A stretch of DNA of 64,000 nucleotides from an uncultured Lentisphaeraceae bacterium (GCA_964636295.1 CAZWQY010000006.1:10486-74485), one strand, 5' to 3'; positions 8,800 through 24,600 are shown, counted from the first letter of the stretch. Numbers and translations are program-made. The notes: generated from the letters alone by a model not told the origin.

Positions 8800-8805
8800 G
8801 CGCCT

Positions 8806-8814
8806 ATTATAGCA
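8806..8814 (-). promoter_or_regulatory. Extended -10 box TGCTATAAT, 6 nt before the ftsA ATG (leaderless)
   Basis: The minus strand reads TGCTATAAT-AGGCGC-ATG(8799). Confidence 0.65.
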
Positions 8815-8832
8815 AATCCGCCCGTCGGATTT

Positions 8833-8841
8833 TGATATAAT
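8833..8841 (+). promoter_or_regulatory. Extended -10 box TGATATAAT upstream of lysA (27-nt leader)
   Basis: Member of the recurrent TGnTATAAT intergenic motif. Confidence 0.6.
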
Positions 8842-8868
8842 GTCCCGTCAAACAGGTAAAACGACGAC

Positions 8869-10119
8869 ATGAGAACACTCCCGTTTGACAAGGCGAAGCT
8901 CGAAGAGATCGCGTCCCGCTGGCCGACGCCGTTCCACATCTACGACGCGAAGGCGATTCGCGCGAACGCGAAGCGGCTGAAGAAGGCGTTTGCATGGAAC
9001 AAGGGCTTCCGCGAGTACTTTGCGGTCAAGGCCGCGCCGAATCCGCATCTCATGAAGCTCCTGAAGGAGTTCGGCTTCGGCAGCGACTGCTCGTCGATGG
9101 CCGAGCTTGTCCTCGCGGAGAAGGTCGGGAACGTCGGCGAGGCGATCATGTTCACATCGAACGACACGCCGGCGGAGGAGTTCCGCAAGGCGTGGGAACT
9201 GGGCGCGATCATCAACTTCGACGACATCACGCACTGGGCGTACTTCCAGAAGGAAGTCGGCGAATGTTCGGGCGATCGGGTCTTCTGCTGCCGCTACAAT
9301 CCCGGTCCGCTCAAGGGCGGCAACGCGATCATCGGCAAGCCGGAGGAAGCGAAGTACGGCATGACGCGCGAGCAGCTTTTCGCCTGCTATGCGCAGATGA
9401 AGGCGGCGGGCGTGACGCGCTTCGGCCTGCACACGATGGTCGCCTCGAACGAGCTGGATCCGGCCTACATCGTCGACACGGCGCGGTTGCTCTTCGACCT
9501 CGTGGCCGACCTCACGCAGCAGCTCGGCATCACCTTCGAGTTCGTCAACATCGGCGGCGGCATCGGCATCCCCTACCGTCCCGACCAGAAGGCGATGGAC
9601 CTCGAGGTCGTGAGCGACGGCATCCGGGCGGCCTACCGGGAGGTTGTCGAGGGGCGCGGCCTCAAGCCGCTCGCGCTTTACATGGAGTGCGGCCGCTGCA
9701 TCACGGGGCCTTACGGCTACCTCGTCTCGCGCGTCCGCCACATCAAGAACACCTACCGCATGTACGCGGGCCTGGACGCCTGCATGTCGAACCTCATGCG
9801 TCCGGCGCTCTACGGCGCGTACCACGAGATCGTCGTGCCCGGCAAGGAGGGTTCGGGCGACACGACGGTCTACGACGTGACGGGTTCGCTCTGCGAGAAC
9901 AACGACAAGTTCGCGATTCAGCGCGTCCTGCCCGTCCTCGCGCCCGGCGACCTCGTCGTCATCTGCGACGCGGGCGCGCATGGGCACGCGATGGGCTTCC
10001 AGTACAACGGCAAGCTGCGTTCGGCGGAACTGCTGCTGGAGGAGGACGGCTCGGTGCGCGAGATTCGCCGCGCCGAGACGCTGGACGACTACTTTGCGAC
10101 ATTGGACTTCGAGGCATGA
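8869..10119 (+). CDS. lysA: Diaminopimelate decarboxylase (fold-III PLP decarboxylase)
   Basis: PTPFHIYD...YFAVKAAPNP...GFGSDCSSMAEL...CDAGAHGHAMGFQYNG is typical of the Orn/DAP/Arg decarboxylase family in its LysA-like form. Confidence 0.7.
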   Translation: MRTLPFDKAKLEEIASRWPTPFHIYDAKAIRANAKRLKKAFAWNKGFREYFAVKAAPNPHLMKLLKEFGFGSDCSSMAELVLAEKVGNVGEAIMFTSNDTPAEEFRKAWELGAIINFDDITHWAYFQKEVGECSGDRVFCCRYNPGPLKGGNAIIGKPEEAKYGMTREQLFACYAQMKAAGVTRFGLHTMVASNELDPAYIVDTARLLFDLVADLTQQLGITFEFVNIGGGIGIPYRPDQKAMDLEVVSDGIRAAYREVVEGRGLKPLALYMECGRCITGPYGYLVSRVRHIKNTYRMYAGLDACMSNLMRPALYGAYHEIVVPGKEGSGDTTVYDVTGSLCENNDKFAIQRVLPVLAPGDLVVICDAGAHGHAMGFQYNGKLRSAELLLEEDGSVREIRRAETLDDYFATLDFEA

Positions 10120-12419
10120 ACGCGGAGCTTTTGTCCCCGGCGGGGGATTTCGAGACGGCGCTCGCGGCGTTTGACGCGGGCGCGGACGCCGTCTACTGCG
10201 GGCTGTCCGACTTTTCCGCGCGCGCGTTCGCGAAGAACCTCTCCGACGGGGATCTCGCGAACCTGGTTGCCTGCGCGCGGGCGAAGGGGCGGCGCGTCTA
10301 TGTCACGTTCAACACGCTGCTCGACGAAGACCAGCTGGAGGGCGCGGTCGAGGTGTTGGCGCGACTGGCGGAGATTGGGCCGGACGGCCTGATCGTGCAG
10401 GATCTCGGCGTCGCGAAGCTCGTGCGCGAGCATTTCCCGGAGCTGGAGCTTCATGCCTCGACGCAGCTGGTCGCCCACAACCTTGAAGGCGTTCTCGCGC
10501 TGAAGGAACGCGGCTTTCGCCGCGTCGTCCTCGCGCGCGAACTTTCCCTCGCGGAGGTGACGACGATCGCCGCCCGCTGCGGCGCGCGCAAGATCGCGGC
10601 GGACGGGCGTCCGGAACTGGAGCTTGAGGTGTTCGTCCACGGCGCGCTCTGCTATTCGCTGTCGGGCCTTTGCCTCTATGGTGCGCTTGAGAAGGGGCGC
10701 AGCGGGAATCGCGGCAAATGTCCGTACTGCTGTCGGCAGGGCATCTCGCGCGCGGACGGCCCGGCTTCGGCGGACGACGCGGAGGGGGTTGCCTATCCGT
10801 TTTCGATGAAGGATCTGCGGCTGGGGGCGGATGCGCGCAAGCTCGTCGAGGCAGGCGTCACCTCGCTCAAGATCGAGGGCCGCATGAAGTCGTCCCTCTA
10901 CGTCGCGTCCGTGACGCGCCACTACCGCGACATTCTGGACGGCGCGCGCGCGCGCGTTTCGCCCGCCGACCTGGAGACGGTCTTTTCGCGCCGCACGACG
11001 GAACTCTACTTCAACGGACGCGGCGCGTCGCCGATTGACGCGGCGTCGCTCGGCCATCTCGGCACGTCCATCGGGACGGTCAAGCGCGTGACGCGCGACC
11101 GCGACGGGCGCGCCTGGCTGCGCTTCCACACGGCGCGCGGACTCGAAAAGCACGACGGCCTCCAGTTCGACGCCGTGGATGCGGACGGCCGCCACTTCGG
11201 CCTTGGCATCGTCGAGATGCGCCAGGCGATTTCGCGCCGTCCCGTCTTCGAGGTGAACGCGGGCGTGGACGTCGAGATCCTGCTGCCGGAGGACGGACAA
11301 GACGGGCCGTCGGAACTGGTGTCGGCGCTGAAGCCGGGCATGACGGTCTACTGCTCGATGTCGAACGCCGTCAAGCGGCTTTTCCCGACGCCGTCGTTCC
11401 GTCCGAGCGACTACGCGGGCGGTTGCGCGGTGGACGTCACGGTGACGCTGGCGAAAGACGGGCTGACGGCATCGGGCGTTGTCGTCGGCAAGGGACATCG
11501 GGATGCGGCGGGCGCGGCCGTTGGCGGGCGCGTGTTCCTGCCGCTGTCGCTGGACGCGGCGCGCGCGCCGGAGAAGACGGCGGCGGCCGTCGAGAAGGCG
11601 TTTGCGAAGCTGGGCGGTACGGGCTATCGGCTGGGGCATTTGACGGTCGAGGATCCGGAAGGGCTTTTTGCGCCGCCGGCGGCGCTCAACGACGCGCGGC
11701 GGGATCTCGTCGAGAAGCTAGACGCGGCGCGCGACCGCGCGCGGCAGGAACGGATCGCGCGGGCGACGGCGGCGTTCGAGGTAATCGAGGGTCCGGGTGC
11801 GTCGGCGGCCGTCGCGCGCGTGAAGGTGCGTCCCGGACAGAAGCTTCCGACGGGCGATTGGGACGAAGTCATCGTCGCGATCAATGCGGATACGGCGGAC
11901 GAGCTGCCGCCCGAATGCCCAAACGCCCCGACCATTCGCCTGGCGCTTCCGGTCTACACGGCCGAGCCGTCGTTCAATCGGCTGCGCAGTGCGGTGAAGC
12001 GTCTTCTGCGCGGGGGCTATGCGAAATGGGAATGCGCCGACCTTGCGACGCTGCGGATGCTGCGCGCGCTTGGCGTGACGGACATCACGGCGGACTGGAC
12101 GCTGGCCGCGTTCAATGCGTTGGCCTTGTCGGAACTCGCCGCCGGCGGCGTGACGCGGTTCGTCGCGAGTCCGGAGAACGGACGCGAGAACCTTCAGTAC
12201 CTCGCCGAGTCGGGCTTTGCCGTCGAGTTCCTGACGCAGCAGTCGACGCCGCTTTTCCTCTCGCTCACCGAACCGGCGCCGTATTCGTCCGAGAGCGTCT
12301 GCACGTTCCGCAAGGACGGCCTGTGGGTGACGACGAAGCGCGTGCCGCGCACGTTTGACGTGCCGACGGGCGTTGCGACGCGCCTCGACCTCTCGTGGGA
12401 GCCGGACTGTGTTGACTGA
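10116..12419 (+). CDS. Peptidase U32 family protein, long form (767 aa)
   Basis: MNAELLSPAGDFETALAAFDAGADAVYCGL...ELHASTQ...VHGALCYSLSGLC...GNRGKCPYCCR are U32 motifs. ATG 10116 overlaps the lysA stop (ATGA). The upstream part of the 8994 ORF is out-of-frame overlap with lysA. Confidence 0.85.
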   Translation: MNAELLSPAGDFETALAAFDAGADAVYCGLSDFSARAFAKNLSDGDLANLVACARAKGRRVYVTFNTLLDEDQLEGAVEVLARLAEIGPDGLIVQDLGVAKLVREHFPELELHASTQLVAHNLEGVLALKERGFRRVVLARELSLAEVTTIAARCGARKIAADGRPELELEVFVHGALCYSLSGLCLYGALEKGRSGNRGKCPYCCRQGISRADGPASADDAEGVAYPFSMKDLRLGADARKLVEAGVTSLKIEGRMKSSLYVASVTRHYRDILDGARARVSPADLETVFSRRTTELYFNGRGASPIDAASLGHLGTSIGTVKRVTRDRDGRAWLRFHTARGLEKHDGLQFDAVDADGRHFGLGIVEMRQAISRRPVFEVNAGVDVEILLPEDGQDGPSELVSALKPGMTVYCSMSNAVKRLFPTPSFRPSDYAGGCAVDVTVTLAKDGLTASGVVVGKGHRDAAGAAVGGRVFLPLSLDAARAPEKTAAAVEKAFAKLGGTGYRLGHLTVEDPEGLFAPPAALNDARRDLVEKLDAARDRARQERIARATAAFEVIEGPGASAAVARVKVRPGQKLPTGDWDEVIVAINADTADELPPECPNAPTIRLALPVYTAEPSFNRLRSAVKRLLRGGYAKWECADLATLRMLRALGVTDITADWTLAAFNALALSELAAGGVTRFVASPENGRENLQYLAESGFAVEFLTQQSTPLFLSLTEPAPYSSESVCTFRKDGLWVTTKRVPRTFDVPTGVATRLDLSWEPDCVD

Positions 12420-14079
12420 CACCCTGAAGCGGCTCGCGAAGTTCGCCTGGTTTCTTCCGGGCTTTCTTCTGTGGGCGGCGTTTCCGCCGATGGGCGAGGG
12501 GGCGGACTGCCTGTTCGCGCTTGCGCCCCTCCTCTGGCTCGCGCGGCGCGAGCAGCCGAGGCTGGCGGCGAAGCGGTGGTTCCAGAACGGTCTGTTCTTC
12601 TGGGTGGCGACGCTGGCGTGGATGCCCGCGATCGTCAAGAACGGCGGCCCGTGGCCGCTTGTCGTCCTCGGCTGGTTCGCCCTCGCGGCCTACTGCGCCG
12701 GGTATTTCGCGCTCTTCGGGTGGCTTGTGGCGCGCTACTGGCGCTGGGCGCGCGGCGTTCATGCCGCCGCGCCGGGGGATGGCGGACTCCTCCTGCGACT
12801 GCTGGGCGTTCTCGTCGTCGAACCGGTGCTCTGGTGCGGACTCGAACTTGTGCGGTCGCGGTTTCTGGGCGGATTCGCGTGGAATCAGCTTGGCGTCGTG
12901 CCGGCGAACTTCGGCTTCGGCGCGCCGGCGGCGTTGGGCGGAGTCTATCTGCTCTCGGCCGTCGTCCTGCTCGTGAACGGCACGGTTGCCGGCATTGCCG
13001 AGCGGATGTGGAAGCCGGCGCAGAGCGGCTTTGCGGGACTGAAGAAACTGGGCACGTTAGAGACGGTTACGGCGTTCGCGCTCATCTGGGCCGTCTATTC
13101 GTTCGCCCCAAACTTCCAGACGCCCCAACATCCAAGCCCTCAAACCACCAAACTCCCAAACGACCAGCCCTTTCTCAAAGTCTCCCTCGTCCAGCGGAAC
13201 TTTCCGTGCGTCTTCAAGGCGCAGGAGGACGATCCGTATGCGGTCTACTCGAACCTGCTGCAGAACGTCGCGCTGTTGAAGCCTGATTTGGTCGTCTTGT
13301 CCGAAAGCGCGCTGTGCGAGTTCGGGCCTGTTGATCAGCAGGGGGCGTTGCGCTTTGTCGCGTTCGTGCGCGCGCAGACGGGGGCCTCGCTGCTTGCGGG
13401 CGGGACGCGCTACGCCGAGGGCAAGACCTACAATTCTGTTGCGCTGTACGGCCAAACGCCCCAACTCCCCAACCCCCAAACCCCCAAACTTCTCAACCTC
13501 CAAACCTACGACAAAGTCCATCTCGTTCCGTTTGGCGAGTTCATACCGGGGGACAAGTGGTTTCCGGCGTTGCAGAAGCTTGCGCCCGTCGGCTCGTGCA
13601 CGCCGGGCGAGCCGCGTCTCCTCGACGTGACGCTGGCATCGGGTGAGGTCGTTCCCCTTGGCGTGGCGATCTGCTTTGAGGATACGGACGCGGCCTTGGT
13701 GCGGACGTTCGCGAAGATGGGCGCGAAGGCCCTTGTCTTCGTGACGAACGACAGCTGGTTCTCGCAGTCGGACGAGCCGTTGGCGCACGCCTGGCAGGCG
13801 ACGGCGCGGGCTGTTGAGACGGGGCTTCCCGTCGTGCGCGTCGGCAATTCGGGCGTGACCGGGACGATTGCGCCGCGCGGACGGGCGGCGTGGCTGCTGG
13901 GCGAGGCGGGGCGGCCGCTCGTCGATCGTCCGGGCACGATGTTTGACCGCATTCCGATTGGGGAGGGCGTCGCCTTGACGCCCTACGTGCGGCTGGGGGA
14001 CGCGCCGCTGGGCCTCGCGTTTGTCCTTCTTGTCGGCGGCATGGCCGGCGTGGCTCTTTGGGGTCGGCGGCGGATTTGA
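12409..14079 (+). CDS. lnt: Apolipoprotein N-acyltransferase
   Basis: Polytopic N-domain followed by a nitrilase-like domain with VHLVPFGEFIP and GVAICFEDTD (catalytic Cys context). The start is taken as in-frame GTG 12409 (or TTG 12412), overlapping the U32 gene end. The ORF-track start at 12355 lies deep inside the U32 gene. Confidence 0.85.
   Translation: MLTDTLKRLAKFAWFLPGFLLWAAFPPMGEGADCLFALAPLLWLARREQPRLAAKRWFQNGLFFWVATLAWMPAIVKNGGPWPLVVLGWFALAAYCAGYFALFGWLVARYWRWARGVHAAAPGDGGLLLRLLGVLVVEPVLWCGLELVRSRFLGGFAWNQLGVVPANFGFGAPAALGGVYLLSAVVLLVNGTVAGIAERMWKPAQSGFAGLKKLGTLETVTAFALIWAVYSFAPNFQTPQHPSPQTTKLPNDQPFLKVSLVQRNFPCVFKAQEDDPYAVYSNLLQNVALLKPDLVVLSESALCEFGPVDQQGALRFVAFVRAQTGASLLAGGTRYAEGKTYNSVALYGQTPQLPNPQTPKLLNLQTYDKVHLVPFGEFIPGDKWFPALQKLAPVGSCTPGEPRLLDVTLASGEVVPLGVAICFEDTDAALVRTFAKMGAKALVFVTNDSWFSQSDEPLAHAWQATARAVETGLPVVRVGNSGVTGTIAPRGRAAWLLGEAGRPLVDRPGTMFDRIPIGEGVALTPYVRLGDAPLGLAFVLLVGGMAGVALWGRRRI
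13117..13167 (+). repeat. 51-nt C/A-rich in-frame element, copy 1, inside lnt
   Basis: cagacgccccaacatccaagccctcaaaccaccaaactcccaaacgaccag, translating to QTPQHPSPQTTKLPNDQ. Confidence 0.8.
13453..13503 (+). repeat. 51-nt C/A-rich in-frame element, copy 2, inside lnt
   Basis: caaacgccccaactccccaacccccaaacccccaaacttctcaacctccaa, translating to QTPQLPNPQTPKLLNLQ. It matches copy 1 at 38 of 51 positions by hand alignment. Confidence 0.8.
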
Positions 14080-14085
14080 TATAAT
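14077..14085 (+). promoter_or_regulatory. Extended -10 box TGATATAAT, 8 nt before the holA GTG; its TGA is the lnt stop codon
   Basis: TGATATAAT-CTCGTCCT-GTG(14094). Confidence 0.6.
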
Positions 14086-14093
14086 CTCGTCCT

Positions 14094-15077
14094 GTGAACA
14101 ATATCCACGTCATTATCGGAGAGGATGATTATCTCGTCGGCGAGGCCGCGAAGAAAGCGGTCGGTGAGGGCGTTGGACTGGAGGTCATTGACTCCGCAAA
14201 TGCGACGAATGCCGAACTGCAGCTTGCCGATTTGGCGCGGGCGGAGGAGAGCGTCGCGACGCCGCCTTTCCTCGACCCGAAGAAGGTGACGTGGTGGAAG
14301 AACGTCGGCTTTCTGCCGGGCGGCAAGGCGTCCGAGGACGTGAAGACGGCGTTGGAGCGCTTTGCGAAGAGGCTGGCGGCCGCGCCGTTGCCGGAAAATC
14401 AGGTGTTCGTTCTGTCGGGCCCGCGCCTTCTCAAGACGTCCGTTTTCGCGAAGACGCTCCAGACGTGTGCGGAGGTCGTTGTCTTCGCCGCCGAGAAGCC
14501 CTGGGAGGCGGCGCGCAACGCCGTCGCGCGTGCGTCTGACTTTGCGCAGGAACTGGGGCTCGCCTTCGCGCCAGGCGTGGCGGAGCGGTTCGTCGCCGTC
14601 GTCGGGCCAGATGCGCGGTCGCTCCGAAGCGAACTTGAGAAGATGCGCGACTATCTGGGCGCGGGCGTGTCGTCCGTGACGGCGGCGGACGTGGAGGCGA
14701 TTGCCTCGCCGGGGGTTGGCGTCGAGCCGTTGCCGTGGGATGTCACGGACGCGATTGGGCGGCGGGATCTTGGCGCCGCGCTTGCGGCGTTGCGTCCGTT
14801 CGAGCTTGAGAATGGCTTTGCCGTCTTCATGACGGGCGTCATCGAGCGGTTCTTCCGTCAGCTCCTCGACGTCGCGGCGGGGCGGACGGACGGCATGGCG
14901 CCGTTCACGGTGAAGAAGAACGAGGGCTTTTTGCGGAACTGGTCCGTGAACGAGCTGCGCGTGGCGCGCGCGCGGTTCGTTCTCCTGCGCGAGAAGGTCG
15001 TTTCGGGCGTCGCGAGCGGCGATTTGCTCGTCGTTCCGACGCTTGCGCGCGTGATGCGCCGGAGGAATGCGCGATGA
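14094..15077 (+). CDS. holA: DNA polymerase III delta subunit-like
   Basis: Size and N-terminus (IHVIIGEDDYLVGEAAKK) are holA-like. It sits in the classic position downstream of lnt-type envelope genes. The start is GTG, 8 nt after a TGATATAAT box. Confidence 0.55.
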   Translation: MNNIHVIIGEDDYLVGEAAKKAVGEGVGLEVIDSANATNAELQLADLARAEESVATPPFLDPKKVTWWKNVGFLPGGKASEDVKTALERFAKRLAAAPLPENQVFVLSGPRLLKTSVFAKTLQTCAEVVVFAAEKPWEAARNAVARASDFAQELGLAFAPGVAERFVAVVGPDARSLRSELEKMRDYLGAGVSSVTAADVEAIASPGVGVEPLPWDVTDAIGRRDLGAALAALRPFELENGFAVFMTGVIERFFRQLLDVAAGRTDGMAPFTVKKNEGFLRNWSVNELRVARARFVLLREKVVSGVASGDLLVVPTLARVMRRRNAR

Positions 15078-15790
15078 GCCGAGAAGTCCTGAATCTCGTC
15101 CGTGCCGCCGAGCACGTCCATCTGGAGCCGAACGAGCTCAAGCACGTCGCCCAGCGCGGCGAGATCGAGGCGACGAAGCGCGGGGACGACTGGTTCTTCG
15201 AGCATCGCGCGCTGGACGAGTGGGCGCAGCGCAATCTCCTGGCGGCGAGCGAACGCGACCTTGCCGCGCTGCATCGGGCGATGATGGACGAGAACCGGCG
15301 CGCCGCGCACGCGGACTGGGGCGTGGCCGACCTCTTCCATGTCGAGACGATCGACCTGGCCGTGGGCGCGAAGGCGAAGGGCGGGCTGTTGCGCGACATG
15401 ACGGATCTCGCGGAGAAGGGCGGGCTCGTCTACGATGCCGAGGGGCTGTTCAAGGAGCTGGTTGCTCGCGAGGAGGCGGCTTCGACGGCCATTGGCGAGG
15501 GCGTTGCGCTTTTGCATCCGCGCTTTCACGACCCGTATCTCTTCGAGGAGACGTTCGTCGCCTATGGCCGCACGACGCGCCCGGTCTTTTTCGGCGCGCC
15601 GGACGGCGAGGGGACGCGCCACTTCTTCCTCGTCTGCTCGACCGACCACGTGGCGCATCTCCACATCCTGGCGCGGTTGGCGATCCTTGCGCACGGCACG
15701 GATCTGATTGAGCGTCTGGATGCGGCGGAAGACGCCGAGGCCGTTCTCGCGGCCATCCGCGCGAGCGAGGCCCTGTATTGTACGGCTTAG
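15074..15790 (+). CDS. Excisionase-type HTH domain fused to a PTS EIIA type-2 (PtsN-like) domain
   Basis: The N-terminus LNLVRAAEHVHLEPNELKHVAQRGEIEATKRGDDWFF is excisionase/MerR-like. The C-domain carries AIGEGVALLHPR (phospho-His context) and HFFLVCSTD. The start overlaps the holA stop (ATGA). Confidence 0.7.
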   Translation: MSREVLNLVRAAEHVHLEPNELKHVAQRGEIEATKRGDDWFFEHRALDEWAQRNLLAASERDLAALHRAMMDENRRAAHADWGVADLFHVETIDLAVGAKAKGGLLRDMTDLAEKGGLVYDAEGLFKELVAREEAASTAIGEGVALLHPRFHDPYLFEETFVAYGRTTRPVFFGAPDGEGTRHFFLVCSTDHVAHLHILARLAILAHGTDLIERLDAAEDAEAVLAAIRASEALYCTA

Positions 15791-15887
15791 GCGGACTTGG
15801 CGGACAGGGCTTTCGGGTTGCGCGTGCGCGGAGCCGTCAGTTGGTGCGCATGGGAACTTCGCGGAATCCGCTTTGATCCCTTGTCAT

Positions 15888-15907
15888 AGGGACGCGGACG
15901 CGTCCCT
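15888..15907. other. Perfect GC-rich inverted repeat between convergent genes (terminator or REP-like hairpin)
   Basis: AGGGACGCG-GA-CGCGTCCCT, located 51 nt beyond the 3' end of the RAYT-like gene. Confidence 0.4.
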
Positions 15908-15957
15908 TGGCAAGGCCTGCGGATTCGACATGATGAATTCGTGTGATCGGGGAGTTG

Positions 15958-16890
15958 CTATGAAAGACCTGCTTGAGCGAGGTCGATCATTTCGTGGCAC
16001 CGCTGGTAGAGTTCCGCGCGCGTCGGCTGTCGGGGCGTCGCCGCGTAGAGGGAGAGAAAGAGCATGCGCCCCTGGGCGCAGAAGCGTTCCTTCTCGCGCG
16101 TCGGATGCCAGCGAGGGGCAAAGCCTTCGGGCGAGAGAACGATCAGCCCGCCGCCTATGTGGGCGATGGCGTTTCCGCAGGCCTTTTCGAGAGGACTCAT
16201 GAAAGTCGAGACGCCGGCTCCGCCTGGCCCGATGCGCGTGGCTTGGGCCAGGAGCGCGTTCCATTCGCATGAGCCTTCCCGCGTCGCGCGATGTCCTTTG
16301 AACGGCGTCAGGACGGGCAGGTCGAGAAGCGCGCGGTTGCCATAGGCGAACCAGCGTCGGCCGAGGAAGGTGACTTCGCTCACGCGCCCGAAATACTGCG
16401 CATGGGCGCGGCGTTCCCAGGCGCGCGCGGCGTTCTCGCGAATGTAGCGGCGAAAGGCGGCGAGTTGCCCCTCCTTTTTGACGATCCAGTCATGCCAGTC
16501 ACGTTCGAAGACGGGGCGAGGTGTCTTGAGGCTTTGGTCGCACGGGGTTTGGCCTGTCGCGGCGTCTGCCGCGACGACTTGCCAATAGGCCGTGCGCAGG
16601 GCCTTGGCGAGCTGGCTCACCAGAACCCCCAGCGCAACGCGATCGGGCGTTGCGCGAATCTTGAAGAGCAGATGGAGGTGGTCGGGCATGACGACAAAGG
16701 GCGAAATCGCCTCGCAGCAGCGCCATTTCGTAGGAAAGCCGCAGATAACTTTCGTGAAGGCGCGCGTCACCTCGTTTTCTATTAGCCCTTTCGGCCCGAT
16801 TTCGGAAAACGCCATCAGCCCCTTGAGACGCTTCAAGGTGACCATGTAGAAAAACGGCGACTTGTAGTCAAAGCCCGGCAATCGACCCAT
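15958..16890 (-). CDS. IS200/RAYT-like Y1 (HUH) transposase homologue with an extra C-terminal domain
   Basis: From MGRLPGFDYKSPFFYMVTLK the protein shows VVMPDHLHLL (HUH motif) and FERDWHDWIV...FRRYIRENAARAW (Tyr-helix region). Start ATG 16890 is preceded by AAGGAGCG and a TGCTATAAT box. The longer ORF-track N-extension runs through that promoter. Confidence 0.75.
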   Translation of the reverse strand: MGRLPGFDYKSPFFYMVTLKRLKGLMAFSEIGPKGLIENEVTRAFTKVICGFPTKWRCCEAISPFVVMPDHLHLLFKIRATPDRVALGVLVSQLAKALRTAYWQVVAADAATGQTPCDQSLKTPRPVFERDWHDWIVKKEGQLAAFRRYIRENAARAWERRAHAQYFGRVSEVTFLGRRWFAYGNRALLDLPVLTPFKGHRATREGSCEWNALLAQATRIGPGGAGVSTFMSPLEKACGNAIAHIGGGLIVLSPEGFAPRWHPTREKERFCAQGRMLFLSLYAATPRQPTRAELYQRCHEMIDLAQAGLS

Positions 16891-16920
16891 GAAATTCGCT
16901 CCTTCGGCGTAGGTGTGTGC

Positions 16921-16929
16921 ATTATAGCA
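16921..16929 (-). promoter_or_regulatory. Extended -10 box TGCTATAAT upstream of the RAYT-like gene
   Basis: Minus strand: TGCTATAAT, then a 30-nt leader containing AAGGAGCG, then ATG 16890. Confidence 0.55.
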
Positions 16930-17478
16930 TTTCCCCGGCTCCTTGGAGACAGCCGATGGTGCTGGACAATCCTTTGGGTGACAAGATGCGAAGAGGCGGC
17001 GACCTCGACCGCCGCCAGATTTTTGGTATGATTCTTTGATTAACCACGAATTGCACGGATTTTCACGGAGTGGGGCGGCTTGTTTGACAGGGTTTGGCGT
17101 AAGATGATATACTTCGCGCATCGTTCTTTGACAGCGGCGAGCGTGGACAGACGCTTGCCACCGGCCAGAGGCGAATTTCAATAAAATAGGGAAAAAGGCC
17201 AGCCCTCTGTTTCGTATTCTATTGTAGTTTGCTGATGGCAAAACCTTTGATTCTTGGCCGCACATCGGGCTGAGAGGAGGAGGACTCGCGGAAACCCATC
17301 CGAGGCCCGCGAGGCGTACGCAGTCTTGCGTATTTGGCTTTGCTCGAAAATCGACCAAATCTTCAACCAAAAGCCGAATATGTAAGATGCGTCGCGTGAT
17401 CGCTCACGCGGCGTGTCTTCTATTTTCGTGTTTTTGGTTAGGCGCTTGGTCGTGCCTTCGAGCAGAACATGAGTTGTG

Positions 17479-17564
17479 AAGACACGCCGCTCCTTATTTC
17501 CCGCGCGTGGCGGTTGTGTCTTGACTAGATCGGCGCGGGAAATCGTTTGGACATCTTTGTCCAA
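17479..17564 (+). promoter_or_regulatory. Structured 5' leader of the island-2 operon with overlapping alternative hairpins
   Basis: AAGACAC (17479-85) pairs with GTGTCTT (17516-22). ATTTCCCGCG (17496-505) pairs with CGCGGGAAAT (17534-43). TTGGACA (17547-53) pairs with TGTCCAA (17558-64). Confidence 0.4.
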
Positions 17565-17584
17565 GCGTAAAACGGGATGCGGAA

Positions 17585-18787
17585 ATGAAGATTGTGGTAT
17601 CGATCGCAATCGTTTGTGCGGCGGGACTGTGGGTTGTCTGGTATAGGGCTGAAGCGGCCAAGCAGGAGCGGGCGGAACAGCGGCAGCAACAGCGAGAAGC
17701 GCAGGCTCGACAGGAAAAGCAAGAAGCGGAGCGGCGGGCGGAGGACGCACGTATCCAACGGGAGCGGCTGGCGGACGTTGCAAAGGAAGATGCCGTCAAG
17801 TTGTTCCTGCGTTATGTCGAGAAGGAAGAAGACCGATTGAAAGAATTCATTGAAGAAGCCAAGTTGATATGCGAAACGATTGCCGTCGATCAACAAAGCC
17901 TTTCGGATGAACTTGTTGTGATCGGACGGCAGAATGAGGGAGAGGCGGCCGCCAGTAGACAACGTGGGGAGAAGCGGAGGGACGAGGTCGAGTACGTGAA
18001 GCGGCTTTTGCGCTCACCTGTCCTCAACCGCTTGGCAGAGACCTATCTAGGCGAAGACCTATCGGCGATGCGTGCGGAGTTTCAGAATCAGATCGGAACG
18101 TTAACGGGTCTTCGTGACGATCTCACGAATCGGCGTGCGGCAAATCAACGCGCGTATGAAGCGGCCATTGGATCGGTTGACGACGATGTGAACAAGAAGA
18201 GCAAAATGGCACAGGAAAAGAGCAAGGAAACGCGAGAACACATCGAGAGCAATATGCGCGTTTTGGAATCTCGTGTGGAGGGGTTGCGTCAGAGAATCAG
18301 GAAACTTGAGACCAAAGTCGGCAAGTCCGCTTGGGACAATCGTGCGTTGGAGCGGCTGCGCAAGGAGTTGGAGGTCGCCGAGTTGCGGTTGTCGCATTAT
18401 CGAGACGTTGAAGGACTGTCTTCCGTCAACAGATTGCAGAACGAGGCCTTGTTGGCGGAGACGCGCGCGCGTCGTGCGCATGACACCGCGTTGGATGCGC
18501 GAACTCGCGCGGACGATGAAGCGTTGGCGGCGTATACGCATGAAATGGGAATCTACACGGAAGCGTCTCGGTTCGAGGATCGTTCCCTTGATGCCATTCG
18601 CACGGCCATGCGGCGACGGCAAGACCTATTGGCCGTTCAGATGTCGGATGCACGGCATAAATTGGCGTTCCTCAAGGAGTCATCGACGAATATCGATTTC
18701 CTCAAGGCGGATGAAGTCGAGGATATGCGTCGGAAGATTGCCAAGCGGTTGAGCGTTCAGGTCATGGGCGAAGAGGAGGCGAAATGA
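17585..18787 (+). CDS. Hypothetical N-terminally anchored all-coiled-coil protein (400 aa)
   Basis: TM segment IVVSIAIVCAAGLWVVWY is followed by an ER/K-Q run (AKQERAEQRQQQREAQARQEKQEAERRAEDAR) and heptad-like sequence to the end. Its stop overlaps the next start (ATGA). G+C is lower than in the core. Confidence 0.7.
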   Translation: MKIVVSIAIVCAAGLWVVWYRAEAAKQERAEQRQQQREAQARQEKQEAERRAEDARIQRERLADVAKEDAVKLFLRYVEKEEDRLKEFIEEAKLICETIAVDQQSLSDELVVIGRQNEGEAAASRQRGEKRRDEVEYVKRLLRSPVLNRLAETYLGEDLSAMRAEFQNQIGTLTGLRDDLTNRRAANQRAYEAAIGSVDDDVNKKSKMAQEKSKETREHIESNMRVLESRVEGLRQRIRKLETKVGKSAWDNRALERLRKELEVAELRLSHYRDVEGLSSVNRLQNEALLAETRARRAHDTALDARTRADDEALAAYTHEMGIYTEASRFEDRSLDAIRTAMRRRQDLLAVQMSDARHKLAFLKESSTNIDFLKADEVEDMRRKIAKRLSVQVMGEEEAK

Positions 18788-20052
18788 TTTTCTCGTTGGC
18801 GACATTGTTTGCTTTTGGCGTTGTCATCGGACCTCGTCCAGACGGCATTGTCCGTGATTCGTTTATCCGCGCCGGCGTGACATTAAAGGATTTTGATCGT
18901 TTAACCGAGGGCTCGAGAAGCGGAAAGACACATTATGCAGGGAATGGATCTGGGTTCTTCATCACGGAAGACGGCTACCTTGTGACGAATCATCATGTCA
19001 TTGAAGATGCCGCAGAACTGGTTGTCGTGAAGGATGGCGTTGCATACCTTGCAGACGTGAAGGCCAAGAATCGGGAACTTGATCTTGCGCTGTTGAAGAT
19101 CAATGCCTTCCCGCGTCCGACGGATGGTGTCTTGTACATTCGGGGGTTGCCGCGTTTTGCTCCGCTTTCGTGTTCAGACGAACCGTCGGCTCGTGTCGGT
19201 CAGACGGTTTTAGTCGTGGGTTTCCCGCAGATCGAATTGCAGGGGATAGAACCAAAAGTGACGCGCGGAATTGTTAGTAGTTTGAGTGGGGTTATGGGCG
19301 CAAAAGATCGGTTTCAGATGGATGCGGCCATCCAAGGAGGAAATTCCGGCGGGCCAGTTGTAGATGAATGGGGGCGTCTGATCGGTGTCTCGGTTTCAAG
19401 TTTGATAGTTGGCGAGAATGTGAATTATGCCGTGAACCTCGAAAGTGTCATGCGTTTTCTTCCGAAGGACATTGGATTTCGGTCGTCTGTTCGGCGGCGG
19501 AGGCGCGCCACATCAGATGTCGTAGCGGATGTCATCAAGTCAACGGCCTTGATTCTGAATTATGCTGAAGGTTCTCATGGGAATGTCGAACATCTAGCGT
19601 CGGACGTGGAGCGACGTGAAGCACAGACCGAACTGAGAAAGGGGGTTTTGGCCGCCCGGATGCACAGGCTTCGGCGTGAGTGGCGGGAGCTCAAGCGTGT
19701 GACAGATGCCATCTTGGCACGGCACGGCGAAGTTGACGATGTCCGAGACATGAATGACTTGGCGCGTGACGAGCTGGGGCTTCACCTTGTTCTTGTTGCG
19801 GAGGCGGACGGACGTGACGTGAAAGCCGTTGTTCGTCCCATCTGCGGGTTCAAGGAAGAGGTCGTCGAGTGCGAACGCCCGACAGCCGTCTTTGGTGGGC
19901 GCGAACGGAGAAACTTCCCGGTTGAAGCCGAACTGACGTTTGAAGATGGTGACTGGCTTTGGGCGGGGACGTTCACGTGCGTCTATGATTGGCATGGGAC
20001 GAAGGAAGTCCGGATTAAGATGAAGCGAGTTGGAAAGAAAGGCGATAAATAA
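18784..20052 (+). CDS. S1 (trypsin/HtrA-like) serine protease with an N-terminal anchor and an uncharacterised C-domain instead of PDZ
   Basis: Triad contexts are VTNHHVIED (His), RELDLALLKI (Asp) and GGNSGGPVVD (Ser). Strong SD GAGGAGG precedes the ATG. N-terminal hydrophobic segment IFSLATLFAFGVVIG. The last 170 aa or so are unassigned. Confidence 0.8.
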   Translation: MIFSLATLFAFGVVIGPRPDGIVRDSFIRAGVTLKDFDRLTEGSRSGKTHYAGNGSGFFITEDGYLVTNHHVIEDAAELVVVKDGVAYLADVKAKNRELDLALLKINAFPRPTDGVLYIRGLPRFAPLSCSDEPSARVGQTVLVVGFPQIELQGIEPKVTRGIVSSLSGVMGAKDRFQMDAAIQGGNSGGPVVDEWGRLIGVSVSSLIVGENVNYAVNLESVMRFLPKDIGFRSSVRRRRRATSDVVADVIKSTALILNYAEGSHGNVEHLASDVERREAQTELRKGVLAARMHRLRREWRELKRVTDAILARHGEVDDVRDMNDLARDELGLHLVLVAEADGRDVKAVVRPICGFKEEVVECERPTAVFGGRERRNFPVEAELTFEDGDWLWAGTFTCVYDWHGTKEVRIKMKRVGKKGDK

Positions 20053-21632
20053 TGAATCTCATTTGTGCGGAATGTGGCCGTGAAATGGTTGTTGACGGAA
20101 TGCTTCAGGATGGGGACATCGTGGCTTGTCCGTCGTGCGGATTGGAGACGGAATATCGAAAGCCAAGTCGAATTGCCGTTCCAACAGGCTTTTCGGGTCG
20201 CGGCGGGAAGTCGGAATCGCCAGCAGAATCCCTGAAGGCTCGCCCAAAGTTGCGGGTCATACGCAAGGACACGCCAACGAAAGGCGGAACGCCTATCTCG
20301 AATGTTCCTTTGCCGAACCAGGCTCGTCATGATTTGCCGCCAAAGCCACCGCGTCCGCGTGCGCAAAAGACAGGAGGTTCAGGCGGGGGCGGTTCCGTTT
20401 CCCTGCTTCTTGTCTTGTTGGTGCTCGGTGCGACATATTGGGGGTATCGCACGTTCGTTTCGGAGCGCGCGGACATTGAAGAGCAGCCTGTCACCACGGA
20501 TCAAAAACAGTCGGGTCTGGATGAGGCTGAGAAAGTTCGGCGACAAAAGGCAGAAGAGGAAGAAGCACTCCGTCAACGCGAGCGACAGCGCGAAAAAGAG
20601 CGAAAAGAACGAGAGCGAGCGGAGGCGCGCGCGGAGATGGCGCGGAATGCGGAGGCCGAAAAAGCCAATCGCCAGGCTTATCGTGTGGCGATGGACGCAT
20701 TTTCCGGCAAGAGCAGCTATTTTGCCGTTGGCGTTCCCAAAGATGAGATTCCCGATCCACGGCAAACGGACGAGGCGTTGACGTTTTGGGCGGCGGACAA
20801 GTCGTTTTGTGAGCAAGGGCTGATTTATGAGATTCAGACAGGGGCTGGAGGCATTGCGTCTGTTCGTTCGCTCTCGGCGAGCGGCTCGCCAACGGAGGTT
20901 GGAAAAGACGAGTTTGTTCAGCGCCTGGAATCGGGCGTCTGGGCCGTTTCGACTGGAGAGGCGGTTTGGATTTTGGGGACGGGGAAGTCCGCTCGGCTTG
21001 TTCCGCTCCCGAAAGACAGAGAGGACGTTTGCCCGATGGGCGATGAACTGGGCGAGGCGATGGCTTCGATCATGGCGTTGCACATGAAGTTGCCAGATGT
21101 GCGCTATCGGCTCTCCTTAAAGCCCAAGTCGGGCGGGGAGGGCTTGCCGCTTGGCATCATTTCGGGGCGTGAGCGGCTGCCTTTCGTGCGTATGCGAGAG
21201 GCCGTCAAGAAGGTTGTGGCCGAACGGCAGGCGGCACAGGCTCTTGCCAAGTTGAAGAAGCCAAAAGCCAAGAGGTTCAAGCCGACGGTTATTTTCTACG
21301 ATGGGAGCATTATCTCTAAGAGTTTGAATGGCGTGACGCGCGTTCCAAGGTCATTCACGTATTTGGGCACAAGCCGGGGCAACAACTATTCTCATGTGAA
21401 CGACATTCGGGAGCGTGCCCGAGAGAAATGGGAGAAGATGCGCGCGGAAGCCGAACGTCAAGAGCGAAAGGCGCGCGAGGTCGAGGCGGAAAATGCTGCG
21501 GCTCTACAGGCGTACAAGCGCAAGCGCGCGGAACTGTCGCGCAATGTTGACGTGAGCGATCGGGATGTCGAGGCGGAATTAGCGAGGTATGGGCTGTTGG
21601 TTGAGCGAAGCCGGACGAAGATTCCGGACTAG
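20052..21632 (+). CDS. Zinc-ribbon / single-TM / ER/K coiled-coil protein (526 aa)
   Basis: The N-terminus has CAECG...(19 aa)...CPSCG (a 4-Cys zinc ribbon) and a basic Pro-rich linker. TM segment SVSLLLVLLVLGATYWGY is followed by RQKAEEEEALRQRERQREKERKERERAEARAEMARNAEAEKANRQ. The start overlaps the protease stop (TAATG). Confidence 0.7.
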   Translation: MNLICAECGREMVVDGMLQDGDIVACPSCGLETEYRKPSRIAVPTGFSGRGGKSESPAESLKARPKLRVIRKDTPTKGGTPISNVPLPNQARHDLPPKPPRPRAQKTGGSGGGGSVSLLLVLLVLGATYWGYRTFVSERADIEEQPVTTDQKQSGLDEAEKVRRQKAEEEEALRQRERQREKERKERERAEARAEMARNAEAEKANRQAYRVAMDAFSGKSSYFAVGVPKDEIPDPRQTDEALTFWAADKSFCEQGLIYEIQTGAGGIASVRSLSASGSPTEVGKDEFVQRLESGVWAVSTGEAVWILGTGKSARLVPLPKDREDVCPMGDELGEAMASIMALHMKLPDVRYRLSLKPKSGGEGLPLGIISGRERLPFVRMREAVKKVVAERQAAQALAKLKKPKAKRFKPTVIFYDGSIISKSLNGVTRVPRSFTYLGTSRGNNYSHVNDIRERAREKWEKMRAEAERQERKAREVEAENAAALQAYKRKRAELSRNVDVSDRDVEAELARYGLLVERSRTKIPD

Positions 21633-21655
21633 CGGTTAGTCAGTCTGCTCGGATG

Positions 21656-21664
21656 TGGTATAAT
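21656..21664 (+). promoter_or_regulatory. Extended -10 box TGGTATAAT, 8 nt before the dnaE ATG (leaderless)
   Basis: TGGTATAAT-ACGCCCTC-ATG(21673). Confidence 0.7.
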
Positions 21665-21672
21665 ACGCCCTC

Positions 21673-24600
21673 ATGTCCGACTTCGTCCATCTCCATCTCC
21701 ACACGACCTATTCGCTCCTTGACGGGCAGTGCCAGATCGTGCCGCTCGTGAAGAAGGCGCGCAAGCTCGGCATGCCGGCCCTCGCCGTCACCGACCACGG
21801 CAACCTCTTCGCGCTCAAGAGCTTCTACGACGAGTGCCGCTCGAAAAAGGAGAAGACGTACGGCGACCTCGCCGGCGTGCACGTCAAGCCCATTCTGGGC
21901 TGCGAGGCCTACGTCACCTCGACGGGCGACTACAGGACGCGCGACAAGTCGGAATATCGCCATCACCTCTGCCTCCACGCGATGAACCTGACGGGCTACC
22001 ACAACCTCGTCAAGCTCATCAGCGAAGCCCACATCAACGGCTTCTACATGCGGCCGCGCATCGATCATGCGCTCCTGGAGAAGTACCACGAGGGCCTGCA
22101 CTGCTCCGCCGCGTGCATCGCGGGCGAAGTCGCGCGGGCGATCGACCAGGGCCGCATGGACGAGGCCGAGCGCGTCGCGAAATGGTACAAGGATCTCTTC
22201 GGCGAGAACTACTCGCTGGAGGTCATGCTCCACAAGGCTGCGAAGTCCGGGCCGGACGTTCCGCTGTCCGCGCAGAACGAGTTCGCCGACCTCTACCAGC
22301 GCCAGCTGAAGGTCGTGCGCGGCATGCTCGAACTCGGCAAGAAGCTCGACATCCGCGTCGTCGCGACGAACGACGTCCACTTCCTCGAGGCGGACGACGA
22401 CGACTCGCACGACGTCCTCCTCGCGCTCTCGACGGGCAAGAAGATGTCCGACGAGAAGCGCATGGTCTACACGGGCCAGGAGTACTTCAAGAACGAGGCG
22501 GAGATGCGCGCGCTCTTCGCGGAGAATCCGGAGCTGATCGCGAACACGAAGGAGGTCGCCGACCGCATCGAGGAGTACGACCTCGACTCGCCGCCGATCA
22601 TGCCGAAGTTCGCGATTCCGGTCTCGTTCGGCACGGAAGAGGGCTATGCGAAGGAATTCGACGAGGCGAAGCTGAAGGCCGAGTTCAACGTCCAGAAGGA
22701 AGGCAACTTCGACCGTCTCGGCGGCTACGACAAGGTGCTGCGCATCAAGTTCGAGGCGGACTACCTGGCCGACCTCGTCTGGAAGGGCGCGGCGATCCGC
22801 TGGGGCGACAAGGACGGGCAGGTTCCGGAGTCCGTGCGCGAGCGCGTCCAGTTCGAGCTGGACACGATCAAGCTCATGGGCTTCCCCGGCTACTTCCTCA
22901 TCGTGCGCGACTACATCCGCGCGGCGCGCGAGGAGTGCGGCGTGTGGGTCGGCCCTGGGCGCGGCTCTGCCGCCGGCTCGGCCGTCGCGTACGCGCTCTG
23001 GATCACGAACGTCGATCCGCTCAAGTACGATCTCCTGTTCGAGCGATTCCTGAATCCCGACCGCATCTCGATGCCGGATATCGACGTCGACTTCGACGAC
23101 GCGGGCCGCGAGCGCGTGCTCGACTACGTCACGCGCAAGTACGGCGCCGACCACGTCGCGCACATCGTGACGTTCGGCCAGATGGCCGCGAAGTCGGCGA
23201 TCAAGGACGTCGGGCGCGTGATGGACTATCCGCTCCCCGACACGAACAAGCTCGCTTCCTACGTCCCCGACACGCCGAAGATCAACTTCAAGAAGGCGCG
23301 CAAGGAGTCGCCCGAACTGGAGGCCGCGTTCAACTCCGAAGACCCGGTCGTCCACAAGCTCATGGAGCGTGCGGGGCGGCTGGAGGGCTGCATCCGCCAG
23401 CCGGGCGTCCACGCCTGCGGCGTCATCATCTCGCGCGACCCGATCGCGGAGACGCTGCCCGTCATGCCGACGCCGGAGAAGAGCGGCGCGAAAGGCAAGG
23501 GGAAGGGCGCGGCGGACGGCGCCGGCGCGGAGGACAAGCTCCTGACGACGCAGTACGACGGGCATTTCGTCGAGCCGGTCGGCCTGCTCAAGATGGACTT
23601 CCTCGGACTCAAGACGCTGACGGTCGAGAAGGAGTGCGTCGCGCTCCTCGGCAAGAACAACCCGCGCGTCCCGGAGGCGATCCGCAACGCCGACGGCGAG
23701 CTTGACACCGACAAGATCCCGGACGACGACAAGGAGACGTACGCGCTCTTCGGGCGCGGCGAGACGACGGGCCTCTTCCAGTTCGAGTCGATGGGGATGA
23801 AGAAGTACCTCATGGCGCTCCAGCCCGAGAAGCTGACGGATCTCGTCGCCATGAACGCGCTCTACCGTCCTGGCCCGATGGCGTACATCCCCGACTTCAT
23901 CGACCGCAAGCAGGGGCGCAAGCCCGTCGTCTACGACCACCCGGAGATGGAGAGCCGCCTGAAGGACACGTACGGCATCACCGTCTACCAGGAGCAGGTC
24001 ATGTTGCTCTCGCGCGACCTCGCCGGCTTCACGCGCGGCGAGTCGGACAAGCTCCGCAAGGCCATGGGCAAGAAGCTCATGGACATCATGGCCGAGCTGA
24101 AGGCGAAGTTCATCAAGGGCTGTCTCGCGAACCCGAAGTTCATGACGGGGACGACGACGGTCGAGGGGCGCGCGCTCGACCTCACGAAGGAGGACGACGC
24201 GAAAGTCCTCATCGAGAAGATCTGGAAGGACTGGGAGGCGTTCGCCTCGTATGCGTTCAACAAGTCGCATTCCGTCTGCTACGCCTGGGTCGCCTACCAG
24301 ACGGGCTTCCTGAAGGCGCACTATCCGGCCGAGTTCATGTGCGCGCAGATCTCGTCCGAAATCGGCAACTTCGACAAGCTCCCCGGCTTCGTCGCCGAGG
24401 CGCGCGACATCGGGCTGGAACTCTTGCTGCCGGACGTGAACGAGTCCGGCGCGCGCTTCGTGCCGGCGAAGGGGTCGAAGGGCATCCGCTACGGCCTGGG
24501 CGGCATCAAGGGCGTCGGCAACGCGGCGGCCGAGGCGATCGTCGCCGAGCGCGCGGCGAACGGGCCGTACACGGGATTCCTCGACTTCTGCCTCCGCCTC

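Follow-up and report, generated by a model that had tools for sequence, protein, structure and literature searches.

HtrA-type serine proteases (HtrA, DegP, DegQ and DegS; MEROPS family S1C) are periplasmic enzymes with a chymotrypsin fold, a His-Asp-Ser triad, an N-terminal signal or anchor and PDZ domains. In the DegS-RseA-RseB sigma-E pathway, an anchored protease of this type is paired with a single-pass protein whose N-terminal domain is cytoplasmic and whose C-terminal domain is periplasmic. The operons of stomatin-NfeD and HflK/C-FtsH pair a membrane-anchored, coiled-coil-rich scaffold with a membrane-associated protease, and ZitP combines an N-terminal CxxC...CxxC ribbon, a linker, a transmembrane (TM) helix and a periplasmic domain. 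Trypsin-like domains are also part of two cytoplasmic systems in the PADLOC defence collection, RT-Protease class XI and PDC-M35A. Attenuating riboswitches, finally, place a covarying sensor with a pseudoknot, an antiterminator and a terminator hairpin that exclude each other, and a U-rich tract in the 5′ leader of an operon. Here we describe a locus that resembles each of these systems in part: an operon of three genes, encoding the proteins P1, P2 and P3, and a conserved leader RNA, found in a stretch of 64,000 nt (hereafter the window) from an uncultured Lentisphaeraceae bacterium (GCA_964636295.1 CAZWQY010000006.1:10486-74485). All features are on the plus strand unless indicated otherwise.

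Judging by its sequence and relatives, the locus is, on balance, probably a mobile accessory operon in which a riboswitch-like attenuator precedes the genes for a periplasm-facing, tethered HtrA-type protease complex, and which is exchanged among gut and rumen Kiritimatiellae. P2 shares the fold and the triad with the HtrA, DegP, DegQ and DegS proteases, and would resemble them also in a putative N-terminal signal or anchor and a predicted periplasmic location; unlike them, it has a C-terminal module instead of PDZ domains, is always coupled to a signal-anchored helical partner and, in some clades, gains a degenerate second protease domain. The arrangement of an anchored HtrA-type protease beside a single-pass protein with cytoplasmic N-terminal and periplasmic C-terminal domains recalls DegS-RseA-RseB, but sigma factor, anti-sigma domain, RseB-like protein and site-2 protease gene are all missing, and the cytoplasmic domain is optional. 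Compared with stomatin-NfeD and HflK/C-FtsH, the protease is of the S1C type and not a ClpP-like protease or AAA+ metalloprotease, and neither P1 nor P3 matched SPFH/Band_7 in Pfam or NCBIfam. P3 is laid out like ZitP, and P3 relatives match Zn_ribbon_4/5 (MJ0042 type) below the Pfam cut-offs, but the periplasmic domains of the two are unrelated. The likeness of P2 to RT-Protease class XI (E = 2e-19) and PDC-M35A (E = 5e-7) is limited to the trypsin-like domain and comes with no reverse transcriptase or other partner of those systems.

No model in Pfam, NCBIfam, PADLOC or PHROGs names the system; the matches were to the protease domain, with weak Zn-ribbon and coiled-coil matches besides. In PADLOC-DB 2.0, P1 had no match, P3 only a coiled-coil match to JetC (E = 2e-4) and P2 only matches to its protease domain. 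We found no description of the cassette or of its leader RNA in the literature.

The three open reading frames (ORFs) lie at 17585-18787 (P1, 400 aa), 18784-20052 (P2, 422 aa) and 20052-21632 (P3, 526 aa). As proposed in a preliminary description of the window, they are chained by overlapping stop and start codons, ATGA at 18784-18787 between P1 and P2 and TAATG at 20050-20054 between P2 and P3. The same description had pointed to an A/T-richer block between a gene resembling those of REP-associated tyrosine transposases (RAYT; REP, repetitive extragenic palindrome) and dnaE, and composition bears this out: G+C is 0.51-0.58 over 17000-21500 and 0.61-0.70 on both sides, and G+C at third codon positions (GC3) is 0.63 in P1, 0.55 in P2 and 0.62 in P3, compared to 0.82-0.85 in the left flank (lnt, holA and the phosphotransferase system (PTS) EIIA-2 gene) and 0.93 in the right flank (dnaE and an AI-2E transporter gene). 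Since the drop in G+C sits in third codon positions, the block is compositionally foreign to a degree that goes beyond richness in Lys and Glu codons; the P2 gene has a low GC3 although it is not Lys/Glu-rich. Each of the three proteins has many homologues, so all three are real genes rather than chance ORFs.

P2 is clearly related to the HtrA proteases. Trypsin_2 (Pfam) matches residues 55-202 (E = 1e-28), a P2 profile retrieves HtrA, DegP and DegS from the sequences of the PDB at E = 1e-30, and Foldseek searches with an AlphaFold model (predicted local distance difference test (pLDDT) score 84) returned DegS protease domains as the best matches (DegS delta-PDZ, E = 1e-12). The catalytic residues H71 (18994-18996), D100 (19081-19083) and S188 (19345-19347) are invariant in 27 relatives, in agreement with the trypsin/HtrA-like protease with an intact triad described earlier. 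Within 18784-20052, residues 1-16 form a signal-like segment and residues 27-225 the protease domain. The expectation that a C-terminal domain stands where PDZ domains would be was likewise correct: neither Pfam nor NCBIfam detects a PDZ domain in P2, and the C-terminal module (residues 243-418; 19510-20037) is modelled as an alpha/beta element, three helices and a beta-sandwich. Going by these models, it is a family-specific module that replaces the PDZ domains. A sequence profile of the module had no match in the PDB; when the whole P2 model was compared with the PDB in Foldseek, the protease domain outweighed the rest of the protein, and the module is not separable there. The whole-protein family score was 96 bits, against a cut-off of 416. 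More than 100 full-length relatives were found. The N-terminal hydrophobic run has a median of 14 residues in the family, and several subfamilies show canonical signals of the Sec or lipoprotein type. One group of variants, about 630 aa long (P0077-P0111, for instance L006 5553-7457), gains an additional trypsin-like domain at the N-terminus; its catalytic His and Ser are not conserved, and from its sequence it looks like a pseudo-protease domain.

P1 is the constant partner of the protease and represents an unnamed family: its 67 relatives are all about 400 aa long and none has a name. Its N-terminal 20 residues are uncharged and contain a signal anchor (residues 3-20), and the approximately 380 aa that follow are helical, with 1 Pro and 13 Gly in the 400 aa of the protein. 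P1 had been described as one TM helix followed by about 380 aa of uninterrupted coiled coil. The N-terminal anchor and the helical character stand, but the analysis does not bear out an uninterrupted coil: coiled-coil-type profile matches are confined to approximately residues 158-320, heptad regularity is patchy, and conserved motifs outside the heptad pattern argue for several helices rather than a single coil. A P1 profile found only generic coiled-coil matches among PDB sequences.

P3 begins with a CxxC...CxxC Zn ribbon (residues 1-35; 20052-20156), followed by a disordered, basic, Pro-rich linker (residues 39-113), a TM helix (residues 115-138; 20394-20465), a 64-residue ER/K helix (residues 152-215), a globular alpha/beta domain (residues 220-445), a second long helix of 50 residues (residues 447-497) and a conserved C-terminal strand, LLxERSRTK. 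Both the sequence and the structure model (pLDDT 79) thus agree with the layout given in the preliminary description, from Zn ribbon and linker through TM and ER/K helices to the globular region. Searched with Foldseek against the PDB and BFVD, the model yielded nothing below E = 0.03 except for the Zn ribbon, which resembles LysW, and the globular domain had no fold match in either database at E < 0.01. The P3 profile matched PDB sequences only through generic coiled coils or Zn ribbons; the ribbon is of a LysW or RNA polymerase subunit P-like type, and the profile matches RNA polymerase subunit P weakly (E = 3e-4). At E ≤ 1e-10 a profile search places 164 representatives in the family. Several of its members (P0222, P0215, P0258, P0264, P0273, P0283 and P0307) have additions, including C-terminal DnaJ-type fingers in some. 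In others the addition is either a cytoplasmic helical domain with conserved sequence (RYYANAPxGARxYI...) or another Zn ribbon, placed ahead of the TM helix.

The Zn ribbon had been proposed to act as the sensor of the system, and this is not supported. In 41 of 120 single-TM relatives of P3 the TM helix lies within the first 60 residues, and most of these begin at the anchor without any ribbon; the figure is an upper bound for ribbon-less P3, because at least two of the 41, P0015 and P0204, retain the ribbon on a short linker. P3 itself is optional, and in one clade (L014) a ribbon is found on P1 instead. Since the ribbon is optional on P3 and has been found on P1, it appears to be an exchangeable cytoplasmic add-on rather than a core sensor.

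The envelope-spanning, periplasm-facing arrangement suggested earlier fares better. Lys and Arg are richer on the N-terminal flank of the P3 TM helix in 79 proteins and on the C-terminal flank in 25, and net flank charge favours an N-in orientation for P1 also. Because this charge bias puts both N-termini in the cytoplasm, the bulk of P1 and P3 would be periplasmic, and the signal-peptide-like N-termini of the proteases point the same way; P1, P2 and P3 are thus predicted to work at the periplasmic face of the inner membrane.

With this topology the proteins could also form a signalling pair after the manner of DegS and RseA, with P2 as a site-1 protease that cuts periplasmic P3 and the freed Zn-ribbon fragment acting on transcription or on the leader RNA. 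DegS protease domains are the best structural matches of P2, the layout of P3 is RseA-like, and nucleic acids or RNA polymerase are common binding partners of Zn ribbons, to which the weak subunit P match adds. We nevertheless consider this scheme quite unlikely: no inspected locus contains a gene for a sigma factor or a site-2 protease, Pfam and NCBIfam detect neither RseA_N nor zf-HC2, and hence no anti-sigma domain, in P3 or P1, the ribbon is missing from most of the 41 relatives with an early TM helix and sits on P1 in L014, and P3 is altogether missing from two clades that keep the leader RNA (L026 and L006).

This leader RNA, which the preliminary description overlooked even though it lies inside the block reported there, is the best-supported regulatory element of the module. 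An alignment of nine cassettes revealed approximately 220 conserved non-coding nucleotides 5′ of P1, though the proteins themselves are only about 40% identical. In the window the RNA spans 17283-17503, as judged by covariation, covariance-model match and folding; it folds 7 standard deviations better than shuffled sequences (z = -7.2), and its many G-U pairs assign it to the plus strand. A covariance model of the 3′ domain, built on 8 sequences, scores 88 bits in the window. In six further lineages it finds exactly one plus-strand match, at 31-70 bits, and this match immediately precedes the cassette's first gene; elsewhere in 341 kb it found nothing at E < 0.1 save weaker reverse-strand echoes of the same sites. 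The RNA accompanies the cassette in 14 of 15 lineages.

The 5′ part of the RNA consists of hairpin P0 (17285-17291/17307-17313), hairpin H1 (17317-17322/17327-17332) and a helix, P2 of the RNA, at 17330-17341/17370-17381. It is followed by an antiterminator-candidate hairpin (17384-17398/17405-17419; AAGAUGCGUCGCGUG paired with CACGCGGCGUGUCUU), the 3′ strand of which is also the 5′ strand of the terminator, and by the terminator-candidate 3′ domain (17408-17500), with an outer stem at 17408-17420/17478-17490, an apical stem at 17440-17443/17454-17457 and a U-rich tract at 17491-17500. Two long-range interactions tie the parts together: a 7-bp pseudoknot, X1/Y1 (CGACCAA/UUGGUCG), joins a 5′ loop (17352-17358) to the apical loop of the 3′ hairpin (17446-17452), and a second helix, X2/Y2, pairs 17365-17372 with 17432-17439. 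H1 may have a second partner, since its 5′ strand (ACGCA, 17318-17322) is also complementary to UGCGU (17388-17392) in the 5′ strand of the antiterminator. This alternative pairing covaries, with 11-14 of 14 sequences paired per position, and suggests a further, anti-antiterminator layer.

Covariation was assessed on a structure-blind MAFFT alignment of 14 leaders, with slid-partner and shuffle controls. Without knowledge of the fold, the scan recovered a 9-bp core of the antiterminator type, the terminator stem, the 7-bp long-range pairing and the apical stem. In this alignment 88% of cells are paired, compared to 40-51% with slid partners; 24 of 39 pairs have changed on both sides, and none of 500 shuffles reached the observed values. 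The pseudoknot is 100% paired in the 14 sequences through ten different sequences (5 of its 7 pairs changed on both sides), and cognate X2-Y2 duplexes have a mean energy of -9.2 kcal/mol, versus -2.8 for non-cognate ones. The outer stem of the terminator is 90% paired, with 10 of 13 pairs changed on both sides, and the antiterminator helix 85.7% paired, with 7 such pairs. The antiterminator hairpin reaches -15 to -29 kcal/mol in all 14 loci, and a U-rich tract follows the terminator stem in most. The two stems are mutually exclusive since they have 12 nt in common (GCGGCGUGUCUU), and both helices covary.

These properties make the leader a candidate riboswitch-like transcription attenuator. 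It shares with attenuating riboswitches the 5′ position, the covarying sensor with a pseudoknot, the exclusive hairpins and the U-rich tract before an operon. It differs from known riboswitches in its presumed target, a mobile protease cassette instead of genes for metabolism or transport, and in its sensor domain, which forms direct pairs with the apical portion of the terminator hairpin. Rfam 15 (4227 families) had no match at E ≤ 1, neither in window positions 15700-22000 nor in the leaders of five other loci. Two other modes of control were considered and rejected. A leader peptide is contradicted by the lack of conservation of the ATG in CAUGUUUU and by reading frames that vary. The Zn ribbon of P3 fails as a general autoregulator of the RNA, for cassettes without any Zn ribbon keep the RNA.

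A 5′ RNA of this kind need not act in cis, and it could instead be a small RNA gene in its own right or simply terminate the gene before it. It does end in a hairpin with a U-rich tract, and promoter-like sequences do precede it: in the window a TG-extended candidate operon promoter matching 11 of 12 consensus positions (TTGACA-18-TATACT, 17084-17113; called by consensus only) lies about 170 nt upstream, -10-like or extended -10 boxes occur 45-227 nt 5′ of the RNA in 11 of 14 RNA-bearing loci, the window included, and strict TGnTATAAT-type boxes in 8 of these 14. The RNA, however, is always found on the operon strand and immediately 5′ of the cassette's first gene, irrespective of what precedes it: in the window the preceding gene runs on the minus strand, and other genes take its place in L005, L026 and L032. 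A covarying multi-helix structure of approximately 200 nt with a pseudoknot far exceeds a terminator, and in three loci the gap between RNA and start codon is only 13-23 nt, too short for a separate promoter, so that the RNA must be a leader in cis. A free-standing RNA or a mere upstream terminator is thus very unlikely. In one short contig (L023, 165-251) the 3′ domain of the RNA (44 bits) immediately precedes a lone gene of the P3 family, and a gene for a 218-aa Zn_ribbon_3 protein comes next; the leader RNA can therefore head a differently ordered cassette.

The cassette is present in at least 12 divergent lineages of Kiritimatiellae-type genomes from gut and rumen. The named hosts are metagenome-assembled genomes of Kiritimatiellaeota, Kiritimatiellae or 'Verrucomicrobia' from human (Hadza) gut, goat ileum and rumen; a genome scan with a narrow C-domain alignment and strict patterns returned 4 genomes, a count that gives no basis for prevalence. 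The order and coupling of P1-P2(-P3) are kept in L001/L008, L005, L009, L010, L011, L012, L016, L024, L026, L028 and L032, and the full P1-P2-P3 order recurs with proteins that are 27-70% identical to those of the window. P1 and P2 are the constant core, whereas P3 can be lost. A four-gene variant (L012, L028) includes one more gene ahead of P1 (at ~6160-6740 and 3414-4004, respectively); its product, of about 197 aa, is secreted or lipoprotein-like and has no match in Pfam or PADLOC. The P2 of this variant is only 337-345 aa long, the beta-sandwich being absent, and the leader RNA precedes the extra gene. A further arrangement, in L014 (6494-7924) and also L015, has a 627-aa double protease and a P1 split into proteins of 302 and 172 aa, the first of which bears an N-terminal Zn ribbon and TM helix 38% identical to the P3 N-terminus of L010; in L014 the cassette is without P3 and without leader RNA and directly follows an ExbB-ExbD-TPR cluster.

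Neighbours differ in every lineage and are often insertion sequence (IS) elements or toxin-antitoxin pairs. The sets include ftsI with a DDE transposase gene; hemCD with HipA; gidA-dnaA; PRiA4_ORF3 and PrimPol with gyrB; IS110 and a DDE transposase gene with trp genes; MNT-HepT with PIN-MazE; and RelB-YoeB. Four hosts of high G+C (those of the window, L005, L016 and L006) have a cassette GC3 0.2-0.4 below that of core genes, and L026 and L027 have an identical cassette next to different left flanks. A metagenomic relative, L018, is 91% identical to the window over 5487-15777 and loses synteny at 15777/15778 (L018 10704); its next approximately 10 kb are unrelated to anything in the 64-kb window and contain no dnaE. 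An empty-site search thus identifies 15777 as a rearrangement point rather than a clean insertion, and because L018 diverges there, the RAYT-like gene and the cassette sit at that point.

The preliminary description had allowed for three genes that do not co-occur elsewhere, for homologues in a housekeeping complex and for a fixed position in all relatives; what we found is a cassette conserved in divergent genomes, with co-occurrence at protein identity down to approximately 30-50%, a different location each time and no housekeeping complex or named system that it could be assigned to. The proposed defence-island context is not supported by the loci inspected, about 12 in number and too few for statistics. 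The flanks are variable and rich in IS elements and toxin-antitoxin genes, and among 10 flank proteins checked there was no recognised defence system, HipA, RelB-YoeB, MNT-HepT and PIN-MazE being present; one locus has a restriction-modification pair about 5 kb from the cassette.

This pattern bears on the simplest explanation, that the operon serves ordinary quality control through a lineage-specific HtrA paralogue with two structural partners, its low G+C reflecting amino-acid composition or low expression. The closest match of the protease is indeed the HtrA/DegP/DegQ family, several loci have housekeeping neighbours, and in L001 and L012 the codon usage of the cassette equals that of the host. 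Against this, GC3 lies 0.3 below that of adjacent core genes in four hosts, the protease gene included, the location varies from lineage to lineage with the left flank differing between L026 and L027, synteny with the 91%-identical relative breaks at the edge, and PDZ domains are missing. A housekeeping role therefore seems distinctly unlikely.

A working scheme for the mobile accessory operon can be outlined as follows. Transcription would start upstream of the structured leader of approximately 220 nt, which would fold into a pseudoknotted sensor domain and then into one of two exclusive hairpins that share GGCGUGUCUU, and so gate read-through into the genes in response to a cytoplasmic signal. 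P1, always present, would serve as a signal-anchored helical scaffold or regulator, P2 as an active protease of the HtrA/DegS type, as predicted from its sequence, whose C-terminal module may dock partners or substrates. In the optional P3, a long helical stalk would keep the novel globular domain above the membrane, and a cytoplasmic Zn ribbon is often present as well. Together the three may form a tethered proteolytic complex acting on envelope proteins or on proteins entering the periplasm, in an accessory role (conflict or niche-specific envelope stress) rather than as core housekeeping machinery.

Several observations weigh against this account. On the protein side, the topology was deduced purely by sequence rules, the signal-like segment in the P2 subfamily of the window is without a basic n-region and has Arg or Lys after it, and the zinc fingers of the DnaJ type (CXXCXGXG) at the C-terminus of some P3 relatives would end up in the periplasm under the predicted topology. 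As for the RNA, one cassette lineage (L014) does without it, the U-rich tract is imperfect in some loci, such as L001, and either hairpin might be the one that terminates, because the antiterminator hairpin is also followed by U-rich sequence. With regard to mobility, no direct or inverted repeats bound the block, no integrase or mobile vehicle was found, and P1, P3 and the C-terminal module of P2 had no matches in viral contigs, phage records or plasmid records. All carriers belong to one bacterial class, so that 'mobile' here means exchange within that class.

The operon could also be an anti-phage or conflict system, the reading favoured in the preliminary description, in which an envelope-anchored protease complex detects or destroys incoming phage or toxin proteins in the periplasm, or causes abortive infection by cleaving envelope proteins, with P3 as the fast-evolving specificity component. 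The cassette is patchy in distribution, has moved horizontally, shows foreign codon usage and lies next to IS elements and toxin-antitoxin pairs, all of which would fit, as would the resemblance of the protease domain to those fused to defence reverse transcriptases (the RT-Protease class XI match given above), and tight RNA gating would suit a costly or toxic product. P3 moreover diverges faster than P1 and P2 (57% versus 68-70% identity to L001, and 27% versus 41-51% to L005). We regard such a function as possible but rather unlikely: PADLOC gives no system-level match, only one to a generic protease domain; apart from HipA-like and PrimPol fragments and the single distant restriction-modification pair, the flanks hold no recognised defence systems; the neighbours in the window are lnt, holA, the EIIA gene and dnaE; the cassette was not found on viral contigs, in phage records or on plasmids; and known protease defence effectors are cytoplasmic, whereas P2 is predicted to be periplasmic. 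A related and similarly doubtful, though not far-fetched, idea concerns the RNA: it may represent a riboswitch class not described before, or some other RNA that senses a ligand or factor, with a pseudoknotted sensor that clamps its own terminator at the tip, and it may travel as one unit with a new kind of periplasm-facing protease system that gut Kiritimatiellae exchange for conflict or defence at the envelope.

Kiritimatiellae are abundant yet almost unstudied in gut and rumen communities. The locus yields two unannotated protein families and a new protease accessory module, always linked to an HtrA-type protease and confined so far to one gut lineage, and neither the P1 and P3 families nor the P2 module has a structural relative where the fold search was informative. 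The constant link points to a new means by which periplasmic proteolysis may be tethered and directed. The leader RNA is large, well supported and new to Rfam; its architecture, in which the sensor pairs with the apex of the terminator hairpin and alternative helices form a cascade, makes it a ready candidate for ligand hunting, and its signal would reveal what the cassette responds to; it is also a clear example of a cis-regulatory RNA that moves with its operon in horizontal transfer. If the operon were a periplasmic defence or stress system, it would widen a repertoire now dominated by cytoplasmic effectors, and if it were RNA-gated in such a role, it would represent an immune or stress effector acting outside the cytoplasm.

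On the left, the cassette is flanked by the RAYT-like (Y1 transposase-like) gene (15958-16890, minus strand), which lies between the EIIA gene, with the synteny break at 15777, and the cassette. Its match to the transposases is weak (REP_Tyr_transpos of NCBIfam, 28.7 bits with a cut-off of 80; Pfam Y1_Tnp, E = 0.066), its GC3 of 0.75 is intermediate, and no repeat families were found around it. As an ORF it extends over 15958-17370 (minus strand); the TTG-started call is probably too long at the N-terminus, the likely start being MGRLPGFDY at 16890, and a C-terminal extension of about 140 aa past the Y1-transposase-like core matches nothing.

On the right, a promoter-like site for dnaE (TAGTCA-16-TATAAT with TG, 21637-21664) falls in the 40-nt gap 3′ of P3 and marks the edge of the foreign block, with GC3 rising from 0.62 to 0.93 across the gap (21633-21675). 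Its extended -10 box, TGgTATAAT, ends at 21664, 9 nt before the ATG, and at so short a distance the dnaE mRNA would be nearly leaderless.

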